A program made the translations under genes and the position numbers. From a virus, in the UHGV virus genome UHGV-0115898: a stretch of 40,790 nucleotides of DNA; one strand, written 5' to 3'. The stretch's first letter is position 1, and every line of letters starts with the position of its first letter. Below are positions 1-40,790 of the stretch, one piece after another. A model generated the notes under the pieces. It had not been told where the DNA came from and did not search any database. It saw only the letters and a list, made by a program, of their open reading frames with translations.

Positions 1-52
1 TTATCAATTTGTTGCAACGAACAGGTCACTATCAGTCAAAATAAAATCATTA
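1..52. promoter_or_regulatory. Fragment of lambda-type attachment site P-prime arm with tandem Int arm-type binding motifs (aggtcactat / cagtcaaaat / aaaatcatta); core not in window
   Basis: Sequence immediately 3' of int carries three tandem copies of the arm-type consensus (C/A)AGTCACTAT; recognised as lambda attP P' arm from memory; the overlap-region core is not present. Confidence 0.5.
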
Positions 53-1120
53 TTTGATTTCAATTTTGTCCCACTCCCTGCCTCTGTCATCACGATACTG
101 TGATGCCATGGTGTCCGACTTATGCCCGAGAAGATGTTGAGCAAATTTATCGCTTATCTGCTTCTCATAGAGTCTTGCAGACAAACTGCGCAACTCGTGA
201 AAGGTAGGCGGATCCCCTTCGAAGGAAAGACCTGATGCTTTTCGTGCGCGCATAAAATACCTTGATACTGTGCCGGATGAAAGCGGTTCACGACGAGTAG
301 ATGCAATTATGGTTTCTCCGCCAAGAATCTCTTTGCATTTATCAAGTGTTTCCTTCATTGATATCCCAAGAGCATCAACATGCAATGTTGTTGGGATGGC
401 AATTTTTACGCCTGTTTTGCTTTGCTCGACATAAAGATATCCATCTACGATATCAGACCACTTCATTTCGCATAAATCACCAACTCGCTGCCCGGTAACA
501 ACAGCCAGTTCCATTGCAAGTCTGAGCCAACATGGTGATGATTCTGCTGCTTGATAAATTTTCAGGTATTCATCAGCCGTAAGTCTTGATCTCCTTACCT
601 CTGATTTTGCTGCGCGAGTGGCGGTGACCGGGTTTGTTGTTATATGGCCTTCAGCTATAGCCTCTCGGAATGCATCGCTCAGTGTTGATCTGATTAACTT
701 GGCTGACGCAGCCTTGCCCTCGTCTATGTATCCATTGAGCATTGCCGCAATTTCTTTTGTGGTGATGTCTTCAAGTGGAGCATCAGGCAGCCCCCTCCTT
801 ATTGCTTTAATTTTGCTCATGTAATTTATGAGTGTCTTTTGCTTGATTCCTCTGCTGGTGAGGATTTTTTCGTAGCGATCAAGCCATGAATGTAACGTAA
901 CTGAATTATCACTGTTAATCCTCGCTGTCAGAGGCTTGTGTTTGTGTCCTGAAAATAACTCAATGTTGGCCTGTATAGCTTCAGTGATTGCGATTCGCCT
1001 GTCTCGGCCTAATCCAAACTCTTTACCCGTCCTTGGGTCCCTGTAGCAGTAATATCCATTGTTTCTTATATAAAGGTTAGGGGGTAAATCCCGGCGCTCA
1101 TGACTTCGCCTTCTTCCCAT
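50..1120 (-). CDS. int: Tyrosine site-specific integrase, lambda Int type (356 aa)
   Basis: ORF translation MGRRRSHERRDLPPNLYIRNNGYYCYRDPRTGKEF... with C-terminal catalytic region (HELRSL...LLGH...Y) matches lambda Int along its length; ATG start confirmed at 1118-1120. Confidence 0.97.
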   Translation of the reverse strand: MGRRRSHERRDLPPNLYIRNNGYYCYRDPRTGKEFGLGRDRRIAITEAIQANIELFSGHKHKPLTARINSDNSVTLHSWLDRYEKILTSRGIKQKTLINYMSKIKAIRRGLPDAPLEDITTKEIAAMLNGYIDEGKAASAKLIRSTLSDAFREAIAEGHITTNPVTATRAAKSEVRRSRLTADEYLKIYQAAESSPCWLRLAMELAVVTGQRVGDLCEMKWSDIVDGYLYVEQSKTGVKIAIPTTLHVDALGISMKETLDKCKEILGGETIIASTRREPLSSGTVSRYFMRARKASGLSFEGDPPTFHELRSLSARLYEKQISDKFAQHLLGHKSDTMASQYRDDRGREWDKIEIK

Positions 1121-4689: not shown

Positions 4690-4963
4690 AGCGTGAGCGG
4701 TAATTACGCAGGCGCGGGTCGATATATTCAGGGAAGTGGGTATATGTGGCTTTGCGGAATGGTCGGATTGATGTTTCGTTTATTCGGTCTTTTTCCTGTT
4801 TTTCTGCGAGTTGTATATCGCGTCGGCACTTCCGTTCTTCTTTTGTTTCTGGTGGCAGAGCAAGAAACGCGTCGAGATTATTCTTGATATTTTCCAGCAC
4901 CTCCGATACGGAATTGCCGGAACAGCGGCGCGGGTCATCCGCACCATACAGAGGCGCTGGCAT
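4667..4963 (-). CDS. Hypothetical basic protein (98 aa)
   Basis: ATG at 4961-4963 preceded by AGGAG at 6-nt spacing on the minus strand. Confidence 0.5.
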   Translation of the reverse strand: MPAPLYGADDPRRCSGNSVSEVLENIKNNLDAFLALPPETKEERKCRRDIQLAEKQEKDRINETSIRPFRKATYTHFPEYIDPRLRNYRSRYGAISND

Positions 4964-4979
4964 GGTTTTCTCCTGTTGA

Positions 4980-5528
4980 TTATTTAGCTAACTTTTTCCA
5001 GATCGCTGAAACGTATTTGGCTTGGTGAATGGCATCATCAAGCGCGTTGTGGCGAGTTCCTTTGAATGGCATATCTCGCTTAGGGTCGAATCCTATTACC
5101 TTCCCAAGTTCGACGATTGTTCTTACGTCGCGGTCATTCCACCACTGCCACGGAACTGGCTGCCCTGTCAGCGAATAACTGTTTCGGAGAATAACGCAGT
5201 CAAATGATGCTCCATTCCCCCAAACCTGAACGAATTTGTGGTTAGCGTTCTTTATGATGAATTCAGATAACCATGAAAGAGCCGTTGAAAGCTCCTGAGT
5301 GTTGCTGGTTAGCGATTTTCTGGCTTCTTCACTCTGTTCCAGCCACCATAAAATCGTTGAAGCGTCAGGACGCGCTCGATATCGCATTGATGATTCAAGC
5401 GAGATATTTACCGAGAACTCTTCTCCTGTTTCTCCGGTATTCGGGTCAAAGAATACCGACCCAATAGAAATAACTGGCGCGTATGGCCCGTTGCCCATTG
5501 TTTCAAGGTCAACCATCAAGTGATTCAT
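4980..5528 (-). CDS. DnaQ-like (DEDDh) 3'-5' exonuclease (182 aa)
   Basis: Exo I motif MVDLETMG near the N-terminus and Exo III motif HNALDDA near the C-terminus; size typical of phage stand-alone proofreading-type exonucleases. Confidence 0.8.
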   Translation of the reverse strand: MNHLMVDLETMGNGPYAPVISIGSVFFDPNTGETGEEFSVNISLESSMRYRARPDASTILWWLEQSEEARKSLTSNTQELSTALSWLSEFIIKNANHKFVQVWGNGASFDCVILRNSYSLTGQPVPWQWWNDRDVRTIVELGKVIGFDPKRDMPFKGTRHNALDDAIHQAKYVSAIWKKLAK

Positions 5529-5536
5529 GTAAGTCC

Positions 5537-6052
5537 TTAAATTGCGTGAATAGCGTGACGAGGGAAGGGGAGAGTTACTGGTGCAAAGGGGATATCGTCG
5601 TCAAAATCCATAGGTGGTTCGCTGTGATTTCCCTGCTGCTGAGGTTGCTGTCTTTGTTGCTGACCATTATTTCGCTGAGGTGAAGACTGTTCATTGCCTC
5701 CTTGCTTGCCACCAAGCATTTGCATGGTTCCACCAACGCCCACGATGACTTCGGTAGTGAACCGATCCTGTCCGCTTTGATCCTGCCATTTTCTTGTCCG
5801 CAATTTGCCTTCAAGATAAACCTCAGATCCTTTTCGCAGATATTCGCTGGCAATTTCTGCCAGTTTCCCGCTCATTACCACGCGGTGCCACTCCGTCTGC
5901 TCCTTTTGCTCTCCAGTTTTCTTATCACGCCATTGTTCTGACGTAGCAACGGTAAGGTTTGCAAATGCCGTTCCTGATGGTGAATATCTGATTTCTGGAT
6001 CATGCCCAAGGCGACCAATAATGATCACCTTATTTACGCCTCTGCTTGCCAT
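5537..6052 (-). CDS. ssb: Single-stranded DNA-binding protein (171 aa) with Gly/Gln-rich linker and DFDDDIPF acidic tip followed by a 15-aa extension
   Basis: OB-fold N-terminus [23 protein letters not shown]..., [10 protein letters not shown] linker, [11 protein letters not shown] motif; ORF continues [15 protein letters not shown] before the stop at 5537-5539. Confidence 0.9.
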
Positions 6053-6760
6053 TTATGCCGCCTGTTTTAGCTCGTTAACTCTGATGTTCATTACCTGAAC
6101 GCATTTAGCCTGCGCCTCCTCGTTTCCAGCCATTAATTGCCAGTCATGCTGATAACGCTCGATGAGTTTTTTCTTGTCAGTTTCTGTCGCTGCATAATCG
6201 CTGAAGTCTTTCAGGATTTGTTCGCAGTCAACCGATGGAGATTTCTGGTTGGTATTTTCTGGTGATGGTTTGTTATCTGATGCTGGGATTGCCCATCCCG
6301 GCAGCGATGGAGGGGACCAGTAAAATCCTGTTCCATCCTTCAGTTTTGCCCTGTGCCATCCCTGCTTTTTATCGAGAGATGTTTGTGCGAAACCTTCCTC
6401 AAGGTTATACAGATACCGACCGATTCCCCATTGAACGGCAGCGCGCTTCATTGCGCCGGAACGACCACCTTTGACTGCTTCTACCTGCGTGTTTTCAGCA
6501 GCATCCCATTTGGTTACCCATTCGGAATCAATCTTTATTGATATGCCGCATTCAACGCCGCCGTTGTTGGGAATATCGCGGTATTCATTGCGCCATCCTG
6601 CTTTGCCGCAAACATCGTCCAGGCGTTTCATGATTGCCCGGTTCGTGACATAAGCCAGCACCATAGCCCACACTTTGCCATCGCGTGTTTTACCGCTTTG
6701 CTGTATTCGCCATTCGATATCTTCAGGGCTGAATGGCTCATCGAATTTGTTCAAATCCAT
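6053..6760 (-). CDS. Single-strand annealing recombinase: Rad52-like N-terminal domain fused to a P22 Erf-like C-terminal tail (235 aa)
   Basis: C-terminus ...AATETDKKKLIERYQHDWQLMAGNEEAQAKCVQVMNIRVNELKQAA matches the P22 Erf C-terminus from memory; N-terminal ~150 aa (EWRIQQ...LAYVTNRAIMKRLDDVCGKAGW) looks Rad52/Sak-like, not Erf-like. Confidence 0.75.
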   Translation of the reverse strand: MDLNKFDEPFSPEDIEWRIQQSGKTRDGKVWAMVLAYVTNRAIMKRLDDVCGKAGWRNEYRDIPNNGGVECGISIKIDSEWVTKWDAAENTQVEAVKGGRSGAMKRAAVQWGIGRYLYNLEEGFAQTSLDKKQGWHRAKLKDGTGFYWSPPSLPGWAIPASDNKPSPENTNQKSPSVDCEQILKDFSDYAATETDKKKLIERYQHDWQLMAGNEEAQAKCVQVMNIRVNELKQAA

Positions 6761-6847
6761 AATTCACCTCAGAATGGACATGGCCCAAGGAAATAACGCT
6801 GATTTAATACTTCAGTCTTTGCCGCATTCAAAAATACGCGAACACCT

Positions 6848-7018
6848 TCACGATCTCCCTTCTGGCGATACATTAACGCCTGCTGCGTGTACATGCGCCT
6901 CTGTAACTTGCTCTCCTTCACTGTGGTTGCAAGTGACATGAATATCTCCTTCGTTACCGATTAATTCTTTCATCTGACGAATGAATTCTTCGTCTGACCA
7001 GTTATCTGTAAAACTCAT
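6848..7018 (-). CDS. Hypothetical small acidic protein (56 aa from ATG at 7018) in the position of kil
   Basis: ATG at 7016-7018 forms an ATGA overlap with the cIII stop; ORF-track start at 7048 is TTG. Confidence 0.4.
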   Translation of the reverse strand: MSFTDNWSDEEFIRQMKELIGNEGDIHVTCNHSEGEQVTEAHVHAAGVNVSPEGRS

Positions 7019-7185
7019 GGACGGCCTTGTTGTTTCAAAATATCCCAAAGCTTTTCGAGCAAACTTTTCATTCTTGGTTGTTTAAAGTCTGCTCCGGTTA
7101 AAATGTTTTTTCGTGAATGCTGTACCGATAAAATCGGGTTGAAAGGGCGAACCGATGCCGCCCCTGCAATAGCGAACTGTTGCAT
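7015..7185 (-). CDS. cIII: CIII-like protease (FtsH) inhibitor, 56 aa
   Basis: Internal ATG at 7183-7185 with AAGGAG at 7-nt spacing; MQQFAIAG...LLEKLWDILKQQG resembles lambda CIII; lies left of N as in lambda. Confidence 0.7.
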   Translation of the reverse strand: MQQFAIAGAASVRPFNPILSVQHSRKNILTGADFKQPRMKSLLEKLWDILKQQGRP

Positions 7186-7249
7186 AGGATGCTCCTTCTG
7201 TTTGATTGCACAACGAAAACGCCTCGAATGAAGCGTTATTGGTATGCAT

Positions 7250-7276
7250 ATAAAAAGGCCCTCACACTGGAGGGCA
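7250..7276 (-). terminator. Putative intrinsic terminator (tL-like) on minus strand
   Basis: Minus strand GCCCTC-cagtgt-GAGGGC hairpin followed by CTTTTTAT. Confidence 0.45.
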
Positions 7277-7391
7277 AAGAAGATTTCCAATAATCAGAAC
7301 AAGTCGGCTCCTGTTTAGTTACGAGCGACATTGCTCCGTGTATTCACTCGTTGGAATGAATACACAGTGCTGTGTTTATTCTGTTGTTTAT

Positions 7392-7419
7392 GCCAAAAAT
7401 AAAGGCCGACTATGCGGCC
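7392..7419 (-). terminator. Putative intrinsic terminator directly after the 60-aa gene (minus strand)
   Basis: Minus strand GGCCGCATAGTCGGCC hairpin followed by TTTATTTTTGG, beginning 1 nt after the stop at 7420. Confidence 0.45.
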
Positions 7420-7602
7420 TCAGAATGGTTTGTATCCATGTTTAAAGGCGAAATCGTATGCCTCATCCTTAGTGCTGAAGTATTCATAATCAGCAAATCC
7501 ATCACGATAAAACTTGCAGCACCAATGAGGCGGAATGCCATCCTCAGGACCATAGTCTTGATGGAACACATCCTCAACGATGATATTTTCATCTTTTCCC
7601 AT
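7420..7602 (-). CDS. Hypothetical small protein (60 aa) immediately downstream of N
   Basis: ATG at 7600-7602 preceded by GAGGTG on the minus strand; aromatic/acidic composition; in the sieB/ral position of lambdoid phages but no recognisable similarity. Confidence 0.5.
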   Translation of the reverse strand: MGKDENIIVEDVFHQDYGPEDGIPPHWCCKFYRDGFADYEYFSTKDEAYDFAFKHGYKPF

Positions 7603-7610
7603 ATATCACC

Positions 7611-7937
7611 TCAAATAAGTGGTTTGCTGCCTAATTTCATTTTCTGGCGACCAACACAAGTCACACCCATTTCACTGCGTGGCTTGCTGTACCATGTGCG
7701 CTGATTCTTGCGCTCAATACGTTGCAGGTTGCTTTCAATCTGTTCGTGGTATTCAGCCAGCACCGTAAGGTCTATCGGATTCAGTGCGCTTTCTACTCGT
7801 GATTTCGGTTTGCGATTCAGCGAGAGAATAGGGCGGTTAACTGGCTTTGCGCTTACCCCAACCAACAGGGGATTTGCTGCTTTCCATTGAGCCTGTTTCT
7901 CTGCGCGACGTTCGCGGCGGCGTGTTTGTGCATCCAT
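7611..7937 (-). CDS. N: Antiterminator N (108 aa)
   Basis: MDAQTRRRERRAEKQAQWKAANPLLVGVSAKPVNRPILSLNRKPKSRVESALNPIDLTVLAEYH... matches lambda N including the arginine-rich motif; ORF-track extension to 8027 uses an upstream TTG. Confidence 0.92.
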   Translation of the reverse strand: MDAQTRRRERRAEKQAQWKAANPLLVGVSAKPVNRPILSLNRKPKSRVESALNPIDLTVLAEYHEQIESNLQRIERKNQRTWYSKPRSEMGVTCVGRQKMKLGSKPLI

Positions 7938-8047
7938 CTGGATTCTCCTGTCAGTTAGCTTTGAGTAACGCGCCGTGATGCTTATCTCCACGGTTGCTGT
8001 CTTGCAGCTGCATTTCGCGCTACTCAAAGCCTTCTGCTTTGAATGCT

Positions 8048-8078
8048 GCCCTTCTTCAGGGCTTAATTTTTAAGAGCG
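8048..8078 (-). promoter_or_regulatory. nutL site (boxA CGCTCTTA and boxB GCCCTGAAGAAGGGC on minus strand)
   Basis: Reverse complement of 8071-8078 is CGCTCTTA; reverse complement of 8048-8062 is GCCCTGAAGAAGGGC; located between pL and N. Confidence 0.85.
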
Positions 8079-8109
8079 TCACCTTCATGGTGGTTAGTGC
8101 GTCCTGCTG

Positions 8110-8150
8110 ATGGCTAAATAGTACGATTTGTACTTTATCGAGTCAATACA
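8110..8150 (-). promoter_or_regulatory. pL-type early leftward promoter with overlapping operator palindrome AGTACgatttGTACT
   Basis: Minus strand TTGACT - 17 nt - TACTAT; 15-bp palindrome at 8120-8134 lies over the spacer and -10. Confidence 0.55.
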
Positions 8151-8207
8151 AAATGTTCTAAATATAATTAGTTTTTTATAACACTTTGTATTTAATGGGT
8201 TTATATT

Positions 8208-8240
8208 TTGGAAAAAGAAAACCCGACGCTAAGGTCGGGT
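8208..8240 (-). terminator. Putative intrinsic terminator downstream of cI
   Basis: Minus strand ACCCGACC-ttagc-GTCGGGT hairpin followed by TTTCTTTTTCC, about 30 bp after the cI stop; lambda has rexA/rexB here. Confidence 0.5.
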
Positions 8241-8271
8241 TATTGTTGTGTGTTTTAGAGTTGTGAGGCTG

Positions 8272-8931
8272 TTAACTAAATGTCTCTTCAGGCCACTGGC
8301 TGGCGATAACTTTCCCTACTACGGAACAGCTATCATTGCATGGAATCATTGGATATTGCGGGTTTAGTGGCTGTAGGAACACCTGACCGCTATCCCTGAT
8401 CAGTTTCTTGAAGGTAAACTCGTCACCACCAAGTCTGGCTATGCAGAAATCACCTGGCTCAACAGCCTGCTCAGGGTCAACGAGAATTAACATCCCGTCA
8501 GGAAAGCTTGGCTTGGATCCTGTTGGCGCGGTCATGGAATTACCTTCAACTTCAAGCCAAAAAGCACAATCACTGGCTTTTTTGGTTGTGCTGACCCATC
8601 TCTCCGCATCACCTTTGGTAAAGGTTCTAAGCTCAGGCGAGAACATCCCGGCCTGAACATGAGAAAAAACAGGGTACTCATATTGTTTTTTAACGGGGGC
8701 AGATGAGTATTCGCCAACAGGTGAAAATGTACCGTCGTGGTTGAATGAGACGTTATCAATACCAAGGTATTTAAACACCACACCAATCTCGTCAAGAGAT
8801 GGATGACGAGATCCGCGCAACCAGTGACCAATTCCACCCTGCGTCATACCAAGCTCTTCAGCTAACTTCTCTTGAGTTATGCCGAGCTCTTTCATTCTGG
8901 ATCTAGCCAGTTCATACCATTTCATTTTCAT
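8272..8931 (-). CDS. cI: CI-type immunity repressor: lambda-like LexA/S24 C-terminal domain, non-lambda N-terminal HTH domain (about 219 aa from ATG at 8931; alternative ATG at 8925)
   Basis: C-terminal ~140 aa ([38 protein letters not shown]...[14 protein letters not shown]...FTFKKL...) matches lambda CI including the Ala-Gly cleavage site and Ser/Lys dyad; N-terminal ~80 aa differ. Confidence 0.88.
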
Positions 8932-9043
8932 ACCCTTATTATTACGCTCTGTACTAAAACCATCCATGCACAAGATGTATTTTTTTGTTTGCATTCTAAA
9001 AGTACATATCGTATTATTGTTTCATGGTTACTATGGAGGGCAT
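8932..9043. promoter_or_regulatory. Divergent cI-cro control region (oR-type operators, pR candidate TTGCAT-17-TATTAT, pRM region)
   Basis: Operator-like half-site pairs at 8941-8955 (atTACgctctGTACT) and 9001-9015 (AGTACatatcGTAtt) resemble the oL palindrome; -35 at 8989-8994 and -10 at 9012-9017 upstream of cro. Confidence 0.5.
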
Positions 9044-9259
9044 ATGAGCAACCTACGAAAATATCGAGAGTCACTGAATATCTCTCAAACAACACTTGCT
9101 AAGGCAGTTGGATGCACACAGGGAGCTATCGGACATTGGGAATCTGGTCGTCGCTTCCCAGACCTTAAAACATGCCGTGCTCTTGTTGAGTGCCTAAACA
9201 AGTTAGGCGCAAAAGTCAGTCTTGATGACGTGTTCCCGCCGGAACACAAAGCCGCTTAA
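9044..9259 (+). CDS. cro: Cro-like HTH regulator (71 aa)
   Basis: ATG at 9044 preceded by GGAGGG; helix-turn-helix ISQTTLAKAVGCTQGAIGHWESG; divergent from cI. Confidence 0.8.
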   Translation: MSNLRKYRESLNISQTTLAKAVGCTQGAIGHWESGRRFPDLKTCRALVECLNKLGAKVSLDDVFPPEHKAA

Positions 9260-9267
9260 GACATTCC

Positions 9268-9299
9268 CGCTCTTACACATCCCAGCCCTGAAAAAGGGC
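9268..9299 (+). promoter_or_regulatory. nutR site (boxA CGCTCTTA, boxB GCCCTGAAAAAGGGC)
   Basis: Exact boxA at 9268-9275 and boxB hairpin at 9285-9299 between cro and cII. Confidence 0.85.
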
Positions 9300-9378
9300 A
9301 TCAAATTAAACCACACCTATGGTGTATGCATTTATTTGCATACATTCAATCAATTGTTATCTAAGGAAATACTTACAT

Positions 9379-9672
9379 ATGGTTCGTGCAAACAAACGCA
9401 ACGAGGCACTACGAATCGAGAGTGCGTTGCTTAACAAAATCGCAATGCTTGGAACTGAGAAGACAGCGGAAGCTGTGGGAGTTGATAAGTCGCAGATCAG
9501 CAGGTGGAAGAGAGACTGGATTCCCAAGTTCTCAATGCTGCTTGCTGTTCTTGAATGGGGTGTCGTTGACGACGACATGGCTCGATTGGCACGACAAGTT
9601 GCTTCGATTCTCACCAATAAAAAACGCCCGGCGGCAACCGAGCGTTCTGAACAAATCCAGATGGAATTCTGA
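9379..9672 (+). CDS. cII: Transcriptional activator CII (97 aa)
   Basis: [51 protein letters not shown]... matches lambda CII; ATG at 9379; ORF-track start at 9319 is an upstream extension. Confidence 0.95.
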
Positions 9673-15051: not shown

Positions 15052-15254
15052 CGTTCTCAGTAAAAACCATTCCAGACATGCTCGTTGAAGCATACGGAAA
15101 CCAGACAGAAGTAGCACGCAGACTGAAATGTAGTCGCGGTACGGTCAGAAAATACGTTGATGATAAAGACGGGAAAATGCACGCCATCGTCAACGACGTT
15201 CTTATGGTTCATCGCGGATGGAGTGAAAGAGATGCGCTATTACGAAAGAATTGA
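15048..15254 (+). CDS. ninH: NinH (68 aa)
   Basis: [68 protein letters not shown] matches lambda NinH. Confidence 0.9.
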
Positions 15255-33121: not shown

Positions 33122-33514
33122 TTAGCGGTTGATGGTTGCTTTTTTCGGGTCATACCATCTCGGCCATTCTTTCAGGAATGGGAATGAGTCGGGAGCGTGG
33201 TTCTTTTTGTACGATTTAAGCAGCCTTAACCGCTCTATCGCACACTCATAAACCTCTTGTTGCCCTGTAGTCATCTCGGTCCATGAAAGGTGATCCATTG
33301 ATAAGACAACGTTTTCAGCTTCTTTTATGAGGGCGTTTTTATTTCTCACCGCAGCAGCATGGCTGACAGAGCAATCCTGCCATATTCTTAAAAGCCAAAT
33401 AGCTAAGCAGATAAAAAAAATGGTAGATAGCGATATATACACACCAACCTCTTTAGTTTTTCTAGTTACTTTGTCACGATAGGATATGCGAAATGATAAA
33501 ACTAAATTGCGCAC
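33122..33514 (-). CDS. Hypothetical membrane protein (130 aa, GTG start, one N-terminal TM helix) in AT-rich insertion; positional analogue of P22 sieA
   Basis: TM segment VGVYISLSTIFFICLAIWLLRIW after a basic N-terminus; AT-rich codon usage by eye; start is GTG with weak Shine-Dalgarno. Confidence 0.45.
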   Translation of the reverse strand: MRNLVLSFRISYRDKVTRKTKEVGVYISLSTIFFICLAIWLLRIWQDCSVSHAAAVRNKNALIKEAENVVLSMDHLSWTEMTTGQQEVYECAIERLRLLKSYKKNHAPDSFPFLKEWPRWYDPKKATINR

Positions 33515-33702
33515 ATGATAACTCAGTAATAATTGTTAATGAAAACATGATCACCTATATTGCACAAGGCGAAACAGGAAGCATAATCTGGTTTCATGAG
33601 TGTGATCACGTTTGGGTAAATCAAAGTCAAGAGGAAATACTTGAAATTATCAAAAATAACTATCTAAACGTTGCACACGACTCATCTATCCATTTTTCAT
33701 AA
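33493..33702 (+). CDS. Possible small ORF (69 aa) overlapping both flanking minus-strand genes
   Basis: ATG with AGGA 8 nt upstream; overlaps the 130-aa gene start by 22 nt and the 193-aa gene end by 43 nt, so at most one of the overlapping models is likely to be fully correct. Confidence 0.25.
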   Translation: MIKLNCAHDNSVIIVNENMITYIAQGETGSIIWFHECDHVWVNQSQEEILEIIKNNYLNVAHDSSIHFS

Positions 33703-34241
33703 AATTGTATACCGAGATAGGCAAGAACAGATGGATGTATATCAACAAGCTTTTCGCCAAGATGTTCTGTTGGAGGTGGATAATCTTTGCCTTGGTTTCT
33801 TACGGTTATAGGCATAGTTGTTGCTGGATGAAACTCAACTATCATAGGGTCGCCTTCGTATTTTGCTATTTTCCCTGTTGAATCAATGATTAACTCTTTA
33901 ATATAATGGCTTCTTGCTCCCGGAAATGCCCCAAGAGTAGTATAAGGAGGTTCAAGTTTTGAGATTTCCATAGTGGAATGATGATCAGCATTTCTTGCTT
34001 GGTGAAGGTAAGCAAGTGTTTTGTCTGTTTTTCTAAGCATGAACTTTTGGTTGAAGTGGCTGCTAAATTTTCCACTAACCGGCTTTGTTGCACAGAGCAA
34101 CTTACTGAAAGACTTTTCTATATGCCCAAGACATTCTCGCCAGTGCATTTCAAAATCATCATGGTTTGTAGATGATTTCATCTGCTCTAGGCACTTTTTA
34201 GCTGCGATGATTTCTTTTTTTGCTGGGTTGTAATCGATCAT
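33660..34241 (-). CDS. Hypothetical protein (193 aa) translationally coupled to mnt
   Basis: ATG at 34239-34241 overlaps the mnt stop (ATGA) with AAGGA 6 nt upstream; AT-rich; no recognisable domain. Confidence 0.6.
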   Translation of the reverse strand: MIDYNPAKKEIIAAKKCLEQMKSSTNHDDFEMHWRECLGHIEKSFSKLLCATKPVSGKFSSHFNQKFMLRKTDKTLAYLHQARNADHHSTMEISKLEPPYTTLGAFPGARSHYIKELIIDSTGKIAKYEGDPMIVEFHPATTMPITVRNQGKDYPPPTEHLGEKLVDIHPSVLAYLGIQFYEKWIDESCATFR

Positions 34242-34744: not shown

Positions 34745-34812
34745 AGTTGAAGCCCCAACTGCGGGAACAGTCAGGGCTTCTGTTGTCAGTAAATTCGTGG
34801 AGAAAAACCAAC

Positions 34813-35715
34813 ATGAATAGTATAGCAATTTTAGAAGCAGTGAACACCTCTTACGTACCTTTCAATGGTCAGCAGATTATCACCGCCATGACTGCCGGAG
34901 TTGCATATGTTGCGATGAAGCCAATCGTTGAAAACCTTGGAATGAGCTGGTCAACGCAGCAAACAAAACTCATGAAGCAGATTAGCAAATTCAACTGTGT
35001 TCATATGAACATGGTTGCCGCTGATGGTAAGCTTCGTAGGCTACTCTGCCTTCCTTTGAAGAAGTTAAATGGATGGCTGTTCAGCATCAACCCTGAGAAA
35101 GTTCGTGCTGACATCCGCGATAAACTGATTCAGTACCAGGAAGAATGCTTTACTGTGCTGCATGACTACTGGACGAAGGGAAAGGCAGAAAATGCACGTA
35201 AGAAAACATCTGTTGATGACAGGACTCCGCTTCGTGATGCTGTAAATATGCTAGTCAGCAAAAAGCATCTAATGTACCCAGAAGCTTATGCAATGATTCA
35301 TCAGCGTTTCAACGTGGAAAGTATTGAAGAGCTTGATTCATCTCAGATACCGCAAGCAGTAGAGTACATCCACAGGGTAGTGCTTGAAGGCGAGTTCATC
35401 GGCAAACAAGAGAAGAAAACCAACGAGCTTTCTGCAAAAGAAGCAAACAGCCTTGTATGGTTATGGGATTATGCCAACCGCTCACAGGCATTATTCCGCG
35501 AACTGTATCCGGCGCTAAAACAAATTCAATCGAACTATTCCGGCAGATGCTACGACTACGGTCATGAGTTCTCGTATGTTATCGGAATGGCGAGAGACGT
35601 TTTAATAAACCACACGCGAGATGTTGATATTAATGAGCCAGACGGACCAACGAATCTTTCCGCATGGATGAGACTTAAGAATAAAGAATTACCTCCTTCA
35701 GTACATAACTACTGA
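34813..35715 (+). CDS. ant: Antirepressor Ant (300 aa): P22 Ant-like N-terminal domain, different C-terminal domain
   Basis: [40 protein letters not shown]... and [28 protein letters not shown] matches P22 Ant; the C-terminal half does not. Confidence 0.85.
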
Positions 35716-35733
35716 CAGATAACCAACGCAACG

Positions 35734-35758
35734 ACCCAGCTTCGGCTGGGTTTTTTTA
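35734..35758 (+). terminator. Intrinsic terminator after ant
   Basis: CCCAGC-ttcg-GCTGGG hairpin followed by TTTTTTTAT. Confidence 0.8.
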
Positions 35759-35815
35759 TGCCCAAAATTCACCGTAGCCATGCTGCGGCGATTCCTTGTA
35801 TCTGGAGCAAATTAA

Positions 35816-37972
35816 ATGACAGACATTACAGCCAATGTGATCGTATCGATGCCTTCGCAACTCTTCACTATGGCTCGTTCTTTTAAAGCCGTAGCCAATG
35901 GCAAAATTTATATCGGTAAAATTGACACTGACCCGGTAAACCCTGAAAACCAGATTCAGGTTTATGTGGAGAACGAAGACGGCTCTCACGTTCCTGTTTC
36001 GCAACCAATCATCATTAACGCTGCTGGTTACCCGGTATATAACGGACAGATTGCCAAGTTCGTAACTGTGCAAGGCCATTCTATGGCTGTTTATGATGCA
36101 TACGGTGTGCAGCAGTTCTATTTTCCTAATGTGCTGAAGTATGACCCGGATCAGTTTTCTGCAGAATGGCTTGCCAAGATGTCTGCGCCTGATTCTTATG
36201 CATTATTTGGTACATTCTCATCAATAGCAGATCTACGAGCATTTACTGCATACTCATCAGTTAAGGAAAATGGAAGAGTCTATGTTGATTCTTATCACCT
36301 TGGAGCTGGTTATGGCGGAGGATATTTCCGCTGGAATTCAACTAGCACTGATACTGATGACGGTGGCTATACCATTAACCCAACTGGCAATACTGGAACA
36401 GGACGCTGGAAGCGAGAGATATCCTCTGCGTATGTCGCAAGGACGGTGAGTCCGTTGGAGTTTGGGGCAAAAATTAACGATAGTACTTTCGACTGCGCGC
36501 CAGCTATCAATGCGGCTATTTTATATTTGAATCCTTATCTTGATTCCTCATATGATTCTCATCAGGGTGGAGATATTGTGTTGCCAGCAGGGCAGTTTTA
36601 TATTAATGACACTATATACGGCTCTCCCAATGTCAGGGTGCTGGGAACTGGCGGCACTCCAGGGTTCAGATATTCTAGGTCTGGGTGTTCTGTTATTGTC
36701 GCAATGCCCACAATGGATCTCATGAAAATTATGTATGATACCGCCCCGTGGTTGACAGACGGCACATCCAGATACACTAATACAAACGAGATGGTTTACG
36801 GCAGAACGGAAAGTCAGGGATACTATGGGACCTACATTGAGAACATAGTTTTTGTTGGAAATGCAGATCAACAGTGCGGAGTACGTATCTGGCGAGTTCC
36901 ATGCTCCACTCTCAAAGGTGTTGCAGTCTACTCCTGTAAAGTAAGTTTCTGGGTAAATGGTTCGTGGGATGTGATGCTTGATAATTGCTTCTCATATGGC
37001 GCGAAGTACGCCACAATTTTGCCTTATCAAATTACATCGCTTCGCATAGTAGGCGGCTATTATACAGGAAATACTGCACAACTTTATTCTATGGGGACTG
37101 AACAGTGGTTTCATCGAGCGATAGATGAAACTAACAAGCCAAACATTGCTTATGTAACTACTTTCATGTATGCATATAACAGTTTTGATATAAATCTGTA
37201 TGGCGTAACAATAGAAGGGTACAACAGAGAGTTTGCTCTTTTTTATTGCGGCAATGTTAATATGTTTGGTGGGTATACAGAATGGATTGGAGTACCTGCA
37301 AGCGAGACAGGGCATCGTGTTTTTGTGCATGGTGTTGCCTCAGAGTTTTATTCAACAGGGACATACTTTAATCACGACATTAAAGATCTGGCGGTGCAGT
37401 CAGGGAATGTTTTTGACACTACTTCAGGAGAATACCTCCCATCTGAAAGATCACGAGTGATAATTGAAAATCCAAGAGTGGTAACAAAATTCCAGAATCT
37501 TACTAAAGATTTAGGATATGGCTCCTACAATATTGTCATAAAAAACCAACACCCTATCACAGATAGCTTATCGACTACACTTTCAGCGCAGAGGCTTTTT
37601 ACAGTTCAATTTGTTGGATTGCTAGACCAGTATACAATGCGAACTCCTGCTGTAACTGCAAATGGTACAGTGAGCTTTAGTATCCAGATTGGAAATATTG
37701 CAGATGGAGGTGAGTATAGCGTTAGGCTTTTGATGAGAAACACCGCATCCACTGTACAGCAGGATTTAAGATTTACAGTGTTGGTAGGAACAACAACAAC
37801 TGTTACTGGCTACCAGGGACGCTCGAAGGCTGGGACCACATTAATACCAGCACCCACAGCAACATTCACTGGTAGCACATTAACTCTTACTTTCACAGGT
37901 AATTCAGGTTATTATTCATTCTTCAGAATGAAGTGCGTGCCTGTAGAAGATCAACATATTTATACCTATTGA
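35816..37972 (+). CDS. Tailspike protein: conserved P22-family N-terminal head-binding domain, distinct beta-helix receptor-binding domain (718 aa)
   Basis: First ~115 aa ([11 protein letters not shown]...[34 protein letters not shown]...[13 protein letters not shown]...NVLKYDPDQ) match the P22/Sf6/HK620 tailspike N-termini; rest is Gly/Tyr/Thr-rich. Confidence 0.9.
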
Positions 37973-37993
37973 TGGATTTTAGGCCGGGCAACC

Positions 37994-38027
37994 CCTGCCA
38001 ATAGACTTTATTGGCAGGATTTTTTAT
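37994..38027 (+). terminator. Intrinsic terminator after tailspike, overlapping the 3' end of convergent gtrC
   Basis: CCTGCCAATA-gactt-TATTGGCAGG hairpin followed by ATTTTTTAT. Confidence 0.75.
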
Positions 38028-39462
38028 CAAAATCAACAATCAAAATGCTATCCTTGATATAGGAATTTAGCCATTGCCCCTGAAAGGATAGGTTACCTTC
38101 ACATTTATGTGAAATGTAATTTTTAGCCTTGTTTGCTGGCATGTATGTATTCTTTATCCCATTAAATGACATGTACGCACTTCCCCAATACCAGTTCCAG
38201 AAGTAATCTGTGACTGAATAGTTTATCAAAGGAAAGTTTAATGCTGCATTTTTTACAGCTTCGGATCTTGGTGCTGTGCCGGTAAACACAATGCTAACAT
38301 TATCACTACCAGCGTCGCGAATGGATTGCATAATTTCAGAAAGAACTACTTTATTTATCCTTTCCTGAGCCTTCAAAGCATTTCCGTATACATACATTAA
38401 AATCATAGAATACAATACGGGTATTAATGTAATTGATGTTACGTATCTATGTTCTTTAAAGCAATAATATAGCAATGTACTCATGAGGACATAAAAAACT
38501 CCAACCGACATGTATAAGTGAACTCCTCCCAATGGGTTGGCGAGAACCAGCAATGCCCCCATAGTCATTGGCATAGCGATTGCTGTTGCGAGTATCGCTC
38601 CAGTTATAACGTTAAATACTTTCCAGTTTAGGCCTTTACATTTAACGTATTTGTAACTCAGAAACGCCGTCATAATAATGCAAGCTAAAGCTGACAGGAG
38701 TAATAATTCACCACCGACAACCCTGTAAAAATTTGTAGAAGCAAAATCGTAATACTTTAAGCTGTTATTCTTTAGTGCCCCTAATATATCATTTGATATT
38801 CTTGGGTGATTAGATGAATAATGCCCGCTAAAAGTTATGGGTAATATGAATTTCACGTATATCATACCACCTACTAAAACCTGCATTATACGTAATGCAA
38901 CCCTTTTAAGTATTAACTGCGGGTCAGTAAATCTGGCCATGTTAACTATTACTTCACATATTAATAAAATCGCAACGACATTAATGACTGCCTGATAAGT
39001 GCCAAGCACTATCACTACAAATGCGGTGCCTATTATTAATTCATGAACCAGTCTTTTGCACTTAATTGCAAAGAGAGCAAATGCAGATGCAATGGAGAAA
39101 CTGAAAGTTAAAACATCAAACCGATAAGAGAACATTGATATAATAGCTGGATTCGCCATGAATGCCAGAGGTATAATAAAGCTCCATTTTCCCCCATCAA
39201 GAAACCTCTTTCTGTAACATGCAAAAGATATTGCAAGCAGCACAGAAGCAAGAATGATTGGTAGAGGTGCAAGATCGACGATTCTGGAGCTAAGATTGAG
39301 AACTGACATTACTATATCAGCTACAGGCCTCCCGTCCACACCCCATTTAGTATAACCAACAGTCGTTCGCCCAATATCATCAACATAAAATTGGTTTGCT
39401 AGGATAATTGGCAATATAAATATAAAAATAACATACGAGTAACGTTTTGAGTTGTTAATCAT
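38008..39462 (-). CDS. gtrC: GtrC-type serotype-specific O-antigen glucosyltransferase, polytopic membrane protein (484 aa)
   Basis: Multiple hydrophobic TM segments, AT-rich, located 3' of gtrA/gtrB with overlapping start. Confidence 0.8.
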
Positions 39463-40381
39463 TTTTATTCTTACCCTTTAAAATATATCTTGGACGCTGT
39501 TTAACCTCGATATAAATCCTTCCGATGTATTCACCAAGTACCCCTATACCGATCAACTGAATCCCGCCCAAGAAAAGTATCGATACCAGCAAAGATGGAT
39601 AACCACGAACAGCATTCCCAAATACAAGCGTGTCGATAATCATCCACGTTCCGTACAGGAATGCCACTCCGGCAACAAACAGGCCGATATAGGTCCACAT
39701 ACGCAGGGGTAATGTTGAGAAACTTGTGATTCCTTCAAGTGCTAAATTCCACAACTTCCACCCATTGAATTTTGAATCACCTGCAACCCGTTCTGCGCGT
39801 GCGTATTCCACGACATCTGTCTTTCCGCCAACCCAACTAAGAATGCCTTTCATGAAAAGATTGCGTTCTGGCAGGAGCTTAATATTCTCCACTACCTCGC
39901 GAGACATTAGCCTGAAATCTCCAACATTTTCCTCGATCTGCGGGTTGCTGATTTTGTTATGCAGCTTATAGAACCACTCGGCGGTTTTCCTCTTCAGTCT
40001 GCCATCAGTTGAGCGGTCAGATCGTTTAGCAAGCACCATGTCAGCACCTGCTAGCCATTTCTCAATCAGGTGAGGAATAACTTCTATTGGATCCTGTAAG
40101 TCAACGTCAATCGGGATAATCGCCTCACCAGTTGCGTGATCAAGACCAGCGAACAGCGCAGGTTCTTTACCAAAGTTTCTGGTGAATGACAAAGGAACAA
40201 CAAGCGGATCGGAAACAGCCAGCGCGTTTATAATTGATTCAGTAGCGTCTATGCTACCGTCATTAATAAAGACTATCTCGATTTCATGTTGCTGAAGCCC
40301 TTCAAATTCCCGAGCCGTTTTATAAAAAATCGGTATTGTGTCTTCTTCGTTGAAGACGGGAACGACCAGAGAAATTTTCAT
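39455..40381 (-). CDS. gtrB: GtrB bactoprenol glucosyltransferase (GT2 family), 308 aa
   Basis: GT2 motifs ([22 protein letters not shown]) with two C-terminal TM helices. Confidence 0.92.
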
Positions 40382-40740
40382 CTCGCATCCCTAAATACAA
40401 TTAACTTTGAATAGACGAAACCGCACACCAGGCTGATGGCGGAGAAAGTGATAAGGGTGACCATTGGGGGAAGTGCACATCTATCAGCAGCCCACCCGAC
40501 GACAACACTCAGGGTTCCCATGAATCCCACGTATAACATGTAGCGCATCGTTGTAGTCGATGCTTTGAATGTGAATCTTGCATTCGCGAAGAAGCTAAAG
40601 CTCACAGCTACTATGAAACCTGCGAAGTTTGCCAGAGCCTGATTGGTATGCGCTGCATAGATACATACACCAAAAACCACCCAGTGTATAAGTGTGTTTA
40701 GCACACCAATCGAGGTGTACTTTGCAAATAGCTTTAACAT
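40378..40740 (-). CDS. gtrA: GtrA flippase-like small membrane protein (120 aa)
   Basis: Four predicted TM segments, 120 aa, immediately upstream of and overlapping gtrB. Confidence 0.88.
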
Positions 40741-40790
40741 TTCTTCTATCAGCTAATAATCAAAGGCATGAAGTCTATCATCCAAGTCTC

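Follow-up and report, generated by a model that had tools for sequence, protein, structure and literature searches.

The virus genome UHGV-0115898 (40,790 nt, analyzed over its whole length and hereafter called the window) carries at positions 35816–40740 a tailspike gene and, convergent with it, a gtrABC operon for O-antigen modification. Comparison with related loci indicates that the tailspike body and gtrC move as one cassette between conserved flanks. The region is best explained as the right end of an intact P22-like (Lederbergvirus-type) Escherichia coli prophage with a lambda-type integrase, inserted at lambda attB by the bio operon, whose gtr operon most likely masks the receptor of the neighboring tailspike; we put the probability of this explanation as a whole at about 0.8. 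The type of system is already known, and only the tailspike body and GtrC are rare and new. The central features, with open reading frame (ORF) sizes, are:

35816–37972, + strand: tailspike, intact 718-aa ORF
35816–36154, + strand: head-binding (particle-attachment) domain, residues 1–113, PF09008, ending at the KYDPDQ linker
36155–37972, + strand: receptor-binding body and probable depolymerase, residues 114–718, predicted parallel β-helix plus C-terminal β domain, rare family
35916–39516, no strand: variable tailspike-plus-gtrC cassette, ∼100% DNA identity to IMG/VR locus L006
38008–39462, − strand: gtrC, serotype-specific polytopic membrane glycosyltransferase, 484 aa, intact
39455–40381, − strand: gtrB, bactoprenol (undecaprenyl-phosphate) glucosyltransferase, 308 aa, overlapping gtrC by 8 nt
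40378–40740, − strand: gtrA, small membrane protein and putative undecaprenyl-phosphate-glucose flippase, 120 aa, overlapping gtrB by 4 nt

A variable cassette in a conserved layout

Outside the cassette, the identity of L006 to the window dropped to 71–90% in gtrB and gtrA, and upstream of the tailspike L006 could not be aligned. Other E. coli phages and prophages matched the window only at 35700–36156, which comprises the end of ant and the head-binding part, and from ∼39483 onward, that is, the last gtrB codons followed by gtrB and gtrA. Base composition also differs between cassette and flanks: gtrC is AT-rich, as an earlier note on this DNA had it, with 36.5% GC compared with 47.1% for the whole window, the tailspike body has 42.1%, and the head-binding part, gtrB and gtrA have 44–46%. 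GC content at third codon positions (GC3) was 35% in the body, 34% in gtrC and 44–50% in the flanks. The identity pattern of L006, the restriction of all other matches to the flanks and the shared low GC3 together argue that the body and gtrC move as one unit, and by the same comparisons the cassette is exchanged by recombination in its conserved flanks, the head-binding domain and the gtrB 3′ end.

The surrounding layout is the usual one. The annotated P22 record reads ant, gene 9, convergent gtrC, gtrB and gtrA, then int; HF4s has the gene order of P22 and of the window, and the 25 best-ranked E. coli genomes (two-piece match) read 'head-binding/tailspike protein', 'GtrC-like', yfdH, yfdG. 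Because this order recurs in P22, HF4s and E. coli prophages, adjacency of tailspike and gtr is the default arrangement, and the idea in the earlier note that the placement is noteworthy was dropped once the annotated P22 and HF4s records had been consulted. Its description of the two elements as two morons did not hold either, the tailspike being an essential late structural gene. Published work on P22-like phages already describes gtrABC as very mobile, gtrA and gtrB being conserved and gtrC specific to the serotype (PMC2629481).

The likeness to P22 extends over gene order and orientation (ant, terminator, tailspike, convergent gtrC, gtrB, gtrA, attachment site), the head-binding domain (75% identity), GtrB (88%), GtrA (79%) and the positions of the gtr −10 and of the GATC-containing −35. 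The window differs from P22 in a tailspike body that has no sequence similarity, a GtrC that is only 26% identical, missing Dam/OxyR elements (GATC-1 to GATC-3 and OxyR half-sites A, B and C) and a lambda-type integrase with lambda attB. BTP1 (Kintz et al. 2015, PMC4413052) likewise has a convergent tailspike and gtr in a P22-like prophage, and its gtr is not phase variable; its tailspike, however, is a P22-type endorhamnosidase (70% identical to that of P22) and its GtrC acetylates, whereas in the window the body comes from a family unrelated to it and GtrC, coupled to GtrA and GtrB, is a glycosyltransferase of the GT-C type. Closest in architecture are HF4s and the E. coli P22-like prophages (tailspike, gtrC-like, yfdH, yfdG), with 85% identical gtrBA DNA, a similar gtrA upstream region with a single GATC at −58 in HF4s and conserved flanks around a variable cassette. 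The cassette itself sets the window apart from them: at the DNA level, neither this body nor this gtrC occurred in any of 5,426 complete E. coli genomes or 50,697 phage records.

A P22-type head-binding domain carries a rare body

The tailspike gene has the position of its P22 counterpart, as the last late gene behind immI (mnt, arc, sar, ant) and a terminator, and its product combines the elements of P22 gp9, namely PF09008, the YDPDQ linker and a predicted right-handed parallel β-helix. Residues 1–113 gave a full-length match to Pfam Head_binding (E = 3.4e-66), and in BLASTP against P22 gp9 the 75% identity spanned residues 1–117, including KYDPDQ, with no similarity beyond. In its DNA, the head-binding part shares 93–97% identity with N7, HK620 and CUS-3, all phages of E. 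coli. Both statements of the earlier note on this protein, a P22-family N-terminus and an unrelated, β-helix-like body, were borne out, the fold of the body being that of a structure prediction: an AlphaFold model (30 sequences) had a predicted local distance difference test score of ∼80 over the body.

Among the 50,697 phage records the body was absent at the protein level as well, with only its first ∼110 residues matching anything (30–38%), and a scan with the tailspike alignment over a species-representative genome collection gave no match. A large protein collection contained ∼37 relatives of the body (45–70% identity), including proteins of Yersinia kristensenii and Mixta, with three kinds of N-terminus (P22 head-binding, PF18668 Tail_spike_N, or none). 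Among 1.84 billion representatives, searched exhaustively (50% identity), one cluster plus fragments accounted for the full-length body, and the remaining matches were limited to the proximal ∼120–300 residues. Compared with TSP1 and TSP2 of Kuttervirus CBA120 and other β-helix depolymerases, identity was only 11–14%, and catalytic residues and substrate are not transferable from them. The family alignment contains many invariant Asp and Glu residues, among which catalytic ones are not assignable without a characterized relative. The body most likely binds a host surface polysaccharide, with the O-antigen as the most likely one, and probably cleaves it.

The proximal part of the body deserves a separate remark. 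Window positions 36170–36700 (residues ∼120–300) are the only portion of the body common to hundreds of otherwise unrelated tailspike-like proteins; of the 671 matches at E up to 0.001, nearly all were confined to these residues. This stretch may be a second, internal recombination anchor.

The gtr operon is intact and probably of the glucosyltransferase type

The three gtr genes have the composition of a GtrABC operon, with gtrA first, a conserved gtrB and a variable, polytopic and intact gtrC last; as the earlier note had described, they are convergent with the tailspike, overlapping and complete, and the ORF coordinates needed no change. GtrC matched Pfam GtrII (PF14264, E = 7.7e-22, 78 bits against a cut-off of 30) and, over its full length, the GtrC-like phrog_4829 (E = 5e-79). 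It has ∼9–10 hydrophobic segments and a GT-C fold, not an acyltransferase-3 fold. Its 17 relatives (40–97% identity) are all 484–489 aa long, so gtrC is no pseudogene. The invariant residues D28 and D29 lie in the segment behind the first predicted helix, putatively at the position of the GT-C catalytic acid.

GtrB belongs to Pfam GT2 (E = 8.5e-29) and, besides its likeness to the P22 protein, is 91% identical to HF4s GtrB; both of these are annotated as bactoprenol glucosyl/glycosyltransferases, and the gtrB DNA is 81–85% identical to that of SfV, SfII, SfI and HF4s. GtrA matched PF04138 (E = 6.9e-14) and is 92% identical to HF4s GtrA. Given the 88–91% identity of GtrB to the P22 and HF4s proteins, glucose is the sugar that family knowledge would lead one to expect. 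None of the NCBIfam models covered the tailspike, GtrC or GtrA, and GtrB scored under every equivalog cut-off; the GtrC alignment, too, found no match in the species-representative genome collection. The earlier note had looked to homology for the O-serotype and sugar linkage, which were not predictable from the 50,697 phage records, the 5,426 complete E. coli genomes or the PDB. The contigs that carry the prophage span the gal–bio region, not the O-antigen gene cluster.

Proposed function and alternative explanations

In the model that we favor, the tailspike would be made as a late structural protein whose first ∼113 residues dock to the virion and whose rare-family β-helix body begins at KYDPDQ, and the convergent gtrA–gtrB–gtrC would be a conversion module expressed from the prophage. 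GtrB would load glucose onto undecaprenyl phosphate, GtrA would flip the lipid-linked glucose, and GtrC would attach it, in the periplasm, to a single defined site on the O-unit. If the prophage behaves as P22 and BTP1 do, the O-antigen of the lysogen, once modified in this way, would no longer be bound or cut by the tailspike that the phage itself encodes, with the outcome that superinfection is excluded and the lipopolysaccharide protected. The precedent comes from these two phages: the GtrC of BTP1 shields the O-antigen against the tailspike encoded convergently to it, and the P22 tailspike is blocked by the glucosylation that P22 gtr brings about (PMC4413052). The proposal in the earlier note that Gtr alters the receptor of its own tailspike agrees with an established P22/BTP1 paradigm (PMC4413052, PMC2909390) and gains some support here from the joint occurrence of the body and this GtrC subfamily in several unrelated phages.

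Among the eight contexts of the GtrC subfamily (GtrC at least 49% identical) that we inspected, a tailspike of the body family was convergent and adjacent in seven: the window, L006, L007, L004, L005, L087/L088 and the degraded L089. Two of them, L004 (body 62%, GtrC 53%) and L005 (body 69%, GtrC 49%), are prophages that encode a tape measure and have a different N-terminal adaptor on the tailspike. L087/L088, on the Enterobacter cancerogenus chromosome CP134403.1, also lies in a tape-measure-encoding prophage (body 62%, GtrC 52%, PF18668 N-terminus), and L089 is a degraded P22-like prophage (body 70% but fragmented, GtrC 52%). None of the 68 IMG/VR loci with a GtrC less than 45% identical carried a full-length member of the body family.

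The two genes could nonetheless be adjacent without being matched. The gtrABC operon would then occupy the standard conversion slot between tailspike and attachment site and serve immune evasion or the exclusion of other phages, and the body would be co-transferred by hitch-hiking, as there is no conserved sequence between these back-to-back variable genes at which recombination could separate them. Several observations weigh on this side and against our reading. Body-family tailspikes (56–67%) lie beside unrelated GtrC types in L008, L009 and L012 and without any gtr in L010 and L011; outside the cassette, the nearest relative of GtrC (58%, L085/L086) is encoded in a chromosomal islet with no tailspike nearby; and gtr clusters move between phage types (PMC2629481). 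Furthermore, similarity is highest nearest gtrC and falls with distance in L007 (GtrC 98.8%, tailspike residues 451–718 98–100%, residues 201–450 62–78%) and in L008, where the tailspike is most diverged in residues 501–600, together with gtrC; such decay is what plain physical linkage predicts. On the other hand, the pairing is kept at a divergence to 62–70% in the body and 49–53% in GtrC and across short-tailed and tape-measure-encoding prophages of different genera, and the P22 and BTP1 experiments show that an adjacent pair is functionally matched. Adjacency alone is an unlikely explanation, though one that carries real weight. The linkage is partial, and the comparisons between loci agree with plain physical linkage as well as with functional matching and prove neither; the functional model rests mainly on the experiments with P22 and BTP1. 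The stronger proposal, that the body and this GtrC subfamily are a selected, matched 'recognise receptor, then mask' cassette moving between short-tailed P22-like and tape-measure-encoding prophages of Escherichia and Enterobacter, we advance only tentatively, with the odds somewhat against it; if true, it would define an O-antigen specificity not represented by any characterized phage.

The receptor itself raises a different doubt about our reading. The body family contains no characterized member, sequence searches of the PDB found relatives neither for the core of the body nor for GtrC, and the O-antigen is therefore a presumed receptor; the fold matches of the body include both capsule depolymerases and O-antigen tailspikes, many of the structural neighbors being the former. 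If the body targeted a capsule or exopolysaccharide such as a K antigen or colanic acid, Gtr would leave the tailspike receptor untouched. The best PHROG match, phrog_8280, is annotated 'tail spike protein with colanic acid degradation activity', and the head-binding domain is shared with CUS-3, which targets the K1 capsule. We consider such a target improbable. The body matched no receptor class unrelated to surface polysaccharide, and gtrC is not a pseudogene, the two points on which the earlier note had staked its interpretation. GtrC might also add a group other than glucose, or act without GtrA and GtrB, like the acetylating GtrC of BTP1, considering that GtrC proteins are very diverse and that some 'GtrC' families are acetyltransferases (PMC4413052). 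This would be very surprising for a protein with a GtrII match and a GT-C rather than an acyltransferase-3 fold, which is translationally coupled to an intact gtrB whose product is 88–91% identical to glucose-specific GtrB proteins.

Under the reading that we prefer, in which the operon masks the receptor of its own tailspike, the locus is one more example of a well-documented rule, namely that P22-like phages exchange back-to-back receptor-binding and receptor-modifying modules through conserved flanks, and conceptually it opens no new question. It does supply a new, uncharacterized tailspike specific for a polysaccharide, with possible uses in typing, engineered pyocins or phage retargeting, a practical value that we rate as modest, and a tailspike paired with a glucosyltransferase that most likely masks the same receptor, a well-defined pair with which to study the blocking of a depolymerase by conversion.

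Three of the compared loci show the cassette in altered form. The tailspike of L007 (positions 7001–9157, IMG/VR UViG_2698536687_000008) is an intragenic mosaic, with residues 1–200 and 451–718 at 98–100% and the central residues 201–450 at 62–78%, which suggests that the putative substrate groove alone was exchanged. L089 has, at 7500–9650, an intact gtrABC beside a tailspike split into three ORFs, and L085 has, at 4735–9163, a gtrABC islet that adjoins an acyltransferase-3 gene and has no phage genes nearby. The latter two seem to be stages in the decay of this cassette, which fits a retention of the conversion genes after the death of the prophage.

The gtr promoter lacks the P22-type epigenetic switch

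The earlier note had described the gtrA promoter region as cut off by the end of the window, which is true of part of it. Within the window, 50 nt lie upstream of gtrA; they include the extended −10, whereas the −35, TCGATC (−60 to −55), which contains the only nearby GATC, lies 5–10 nt past the window end, and it and everything further upstream fall beyond base 40790. The promoter element inside the window, inferred from its correspondence in position to the gtr promoter mapped in P22, is:

40772–40780 (−40 to −32), − strand: extended −10 of the gtr promoter, TGn-TAGACT

The P22 counterpart at the matching position is TGn-TACACT. The remaining upstream sequence was taken from L001 and L003, which are 100% identical to the window in all compared proteins and in the overlapping upstream bases. 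A core promoter, consisting of the −35 with GATC-4 and the −10, is present at the P22 positions and was assigned by positional homology only; in P22, gtr transcription starts 33 bp downstream of GATC-4 (PMC2909390).

The phase-variation signals that the earlier note had anticipated upstream of gtrA did not appear in the recovered sequence. GATC occurs there only at −155 and −58, compared with −135, −122, −71 and −58 in P22, and the P22 arrangement, in which four GATC sites form two pairs with a 13-bp spacing, is absent. Similarly, a scan for OxyR half-sites (pattern ATAGNTNNNANCTAT, at least 7 of 10 positions) found none here and none in HF4s; in the P22 control, it recovered sites A, B and C at −134, −102 and −70, with 8–9 of 10 positions matched. 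With both the GATC pairs and the OxyR half-sites missing, a P22-type epigenetic switch is absent. A Salmonella gtr operon with only the −35 (GATC-4) and the −10 did not phase vary, and for Shigella gtr there was no evidence of phase variation (Davies et al., PMC3688519). Our best guess from the sequence is that gtr expression is probably constitutive, although some other form of gtr regulation, which would count against this, may exist despite the missing P22 switch.

Transcription terminators around the tailspike gene

Two terminators flank the tailspike gene:

35733–35759, + strand: intrinsic terminator between ant and the tailspike gene, 8-bp stem with 5 G–C pairs, T-run
37994–38025, + strand: Rho-independent terminator of the tailspike (late) transcript, hairpin 37994–38018 followed by a T-run

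The earlier note had assigned a bidirectional terminator, shared by tailspike and gtrC, to 37994–38027. The hairpin has a 10–11 bp stem, followed on the + strand by the sequence ATTTTTTATC with the U-tract AUUUUUUAUC; on the − strand, the sequence behind the stem (GGGUUGCCCGG / GGGUUGCCCGGCC / GGGTTGCCCGGCC) has no U-tract. An A-tract upstream combined with a U-tract downstream of a G+C-rich hairpin, as in a bidirectional terminator, was thus not found, and the terminator of the late transcript is unidirectional rather than canonically bidirectional. The last codons of gtrC and its stop codon (38008–38010) lie inside the hairpin, which is kept in L006 and L007; other family members have different hairpins there. 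A terminator scan between gene 9 and gtrC of P22 found none and so added no comparison. The terminator between ant and the tailspike gene is annotated at the equivalent place in the HK620 and epsilon34 records; it is a common feature of P22-like phages that late transcription reads through.

Prophage context and integration site

The window holds a whole P22-like prophage, from a lambda-type integrase (50–1120, with an Arm-DNA-bind_1 domain) through gtrA. Its structural genes matched IME10, Sf101 and Sf6-type phages at ∼97%, and its immI region is P22-like, with Mnt and Arc family proteins, Ant and the sar RNA at 34745–34812. The exact tailspike protein was found in public E. coli assemblies, with ∼30 public contigs and assemblies encoding it in all, and three contigs contained 100% identical copies of all genes. 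One of them, L001, extends beyond the window and places the prophage at the lambda attB core (gcttttttatactaa) near ybhB, bioABFCD and uvrB (L001 15200–15400).

At the left end (window 1–1120), the lambda-type integrase region is joined to P22-like virion and immI modules, and we take bases 1–49 to be the P′ arm of lambda attP. At the other end, outside the window and ∼155–225 nt upstream of gtrA, L001 has at 15079–15150 (− strand) a remnant of ∼24 codons of an integrase 3′ end (ending in HAQYLDKRREMMQWWADWIDEKVE and a stop codon). This remnant directly adjoins the gtrA regulatory region, and at that position HF4s has an intact integrase gene; the gtr module seems to have come with its own int/att, which was later swapped for the lambda-type module.

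The sar antisense RNA (− strand; Rfam match of 91 bits, E = 3e-18) overlaps the TTG-started ant ORF proposed by the ORF finder, so that the true start of ant is probably at 34813 (300 aa). The gene callers applied to the matching contigs also start ant at 34813 and give 300 aa.

Between the gp16-like DNA-transfer gene and mnt lies an AT-rich stretch (38.7% GC) with an ORF at 33660–34241 (− strand) for a 193-aa soluble protein of unassigned function, which overlaps the end of mnt and has the same direction. The protein matched phrog_23516 and had no Pfam or PADLOC match; the ORF presumably occupies the position corresponding to that of sieA in P22. Two more small uncharacterized ORFs lie beside it, at 33122–33514 (− strand) and 33493–33702 (+ strand). 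Libraries of defense systems gave no match to these neighboring uncharacterized ORFs, and we note the 193-aa ORF and its two small neighbors as candidate exclusion or defense genes expressed from the prophage.

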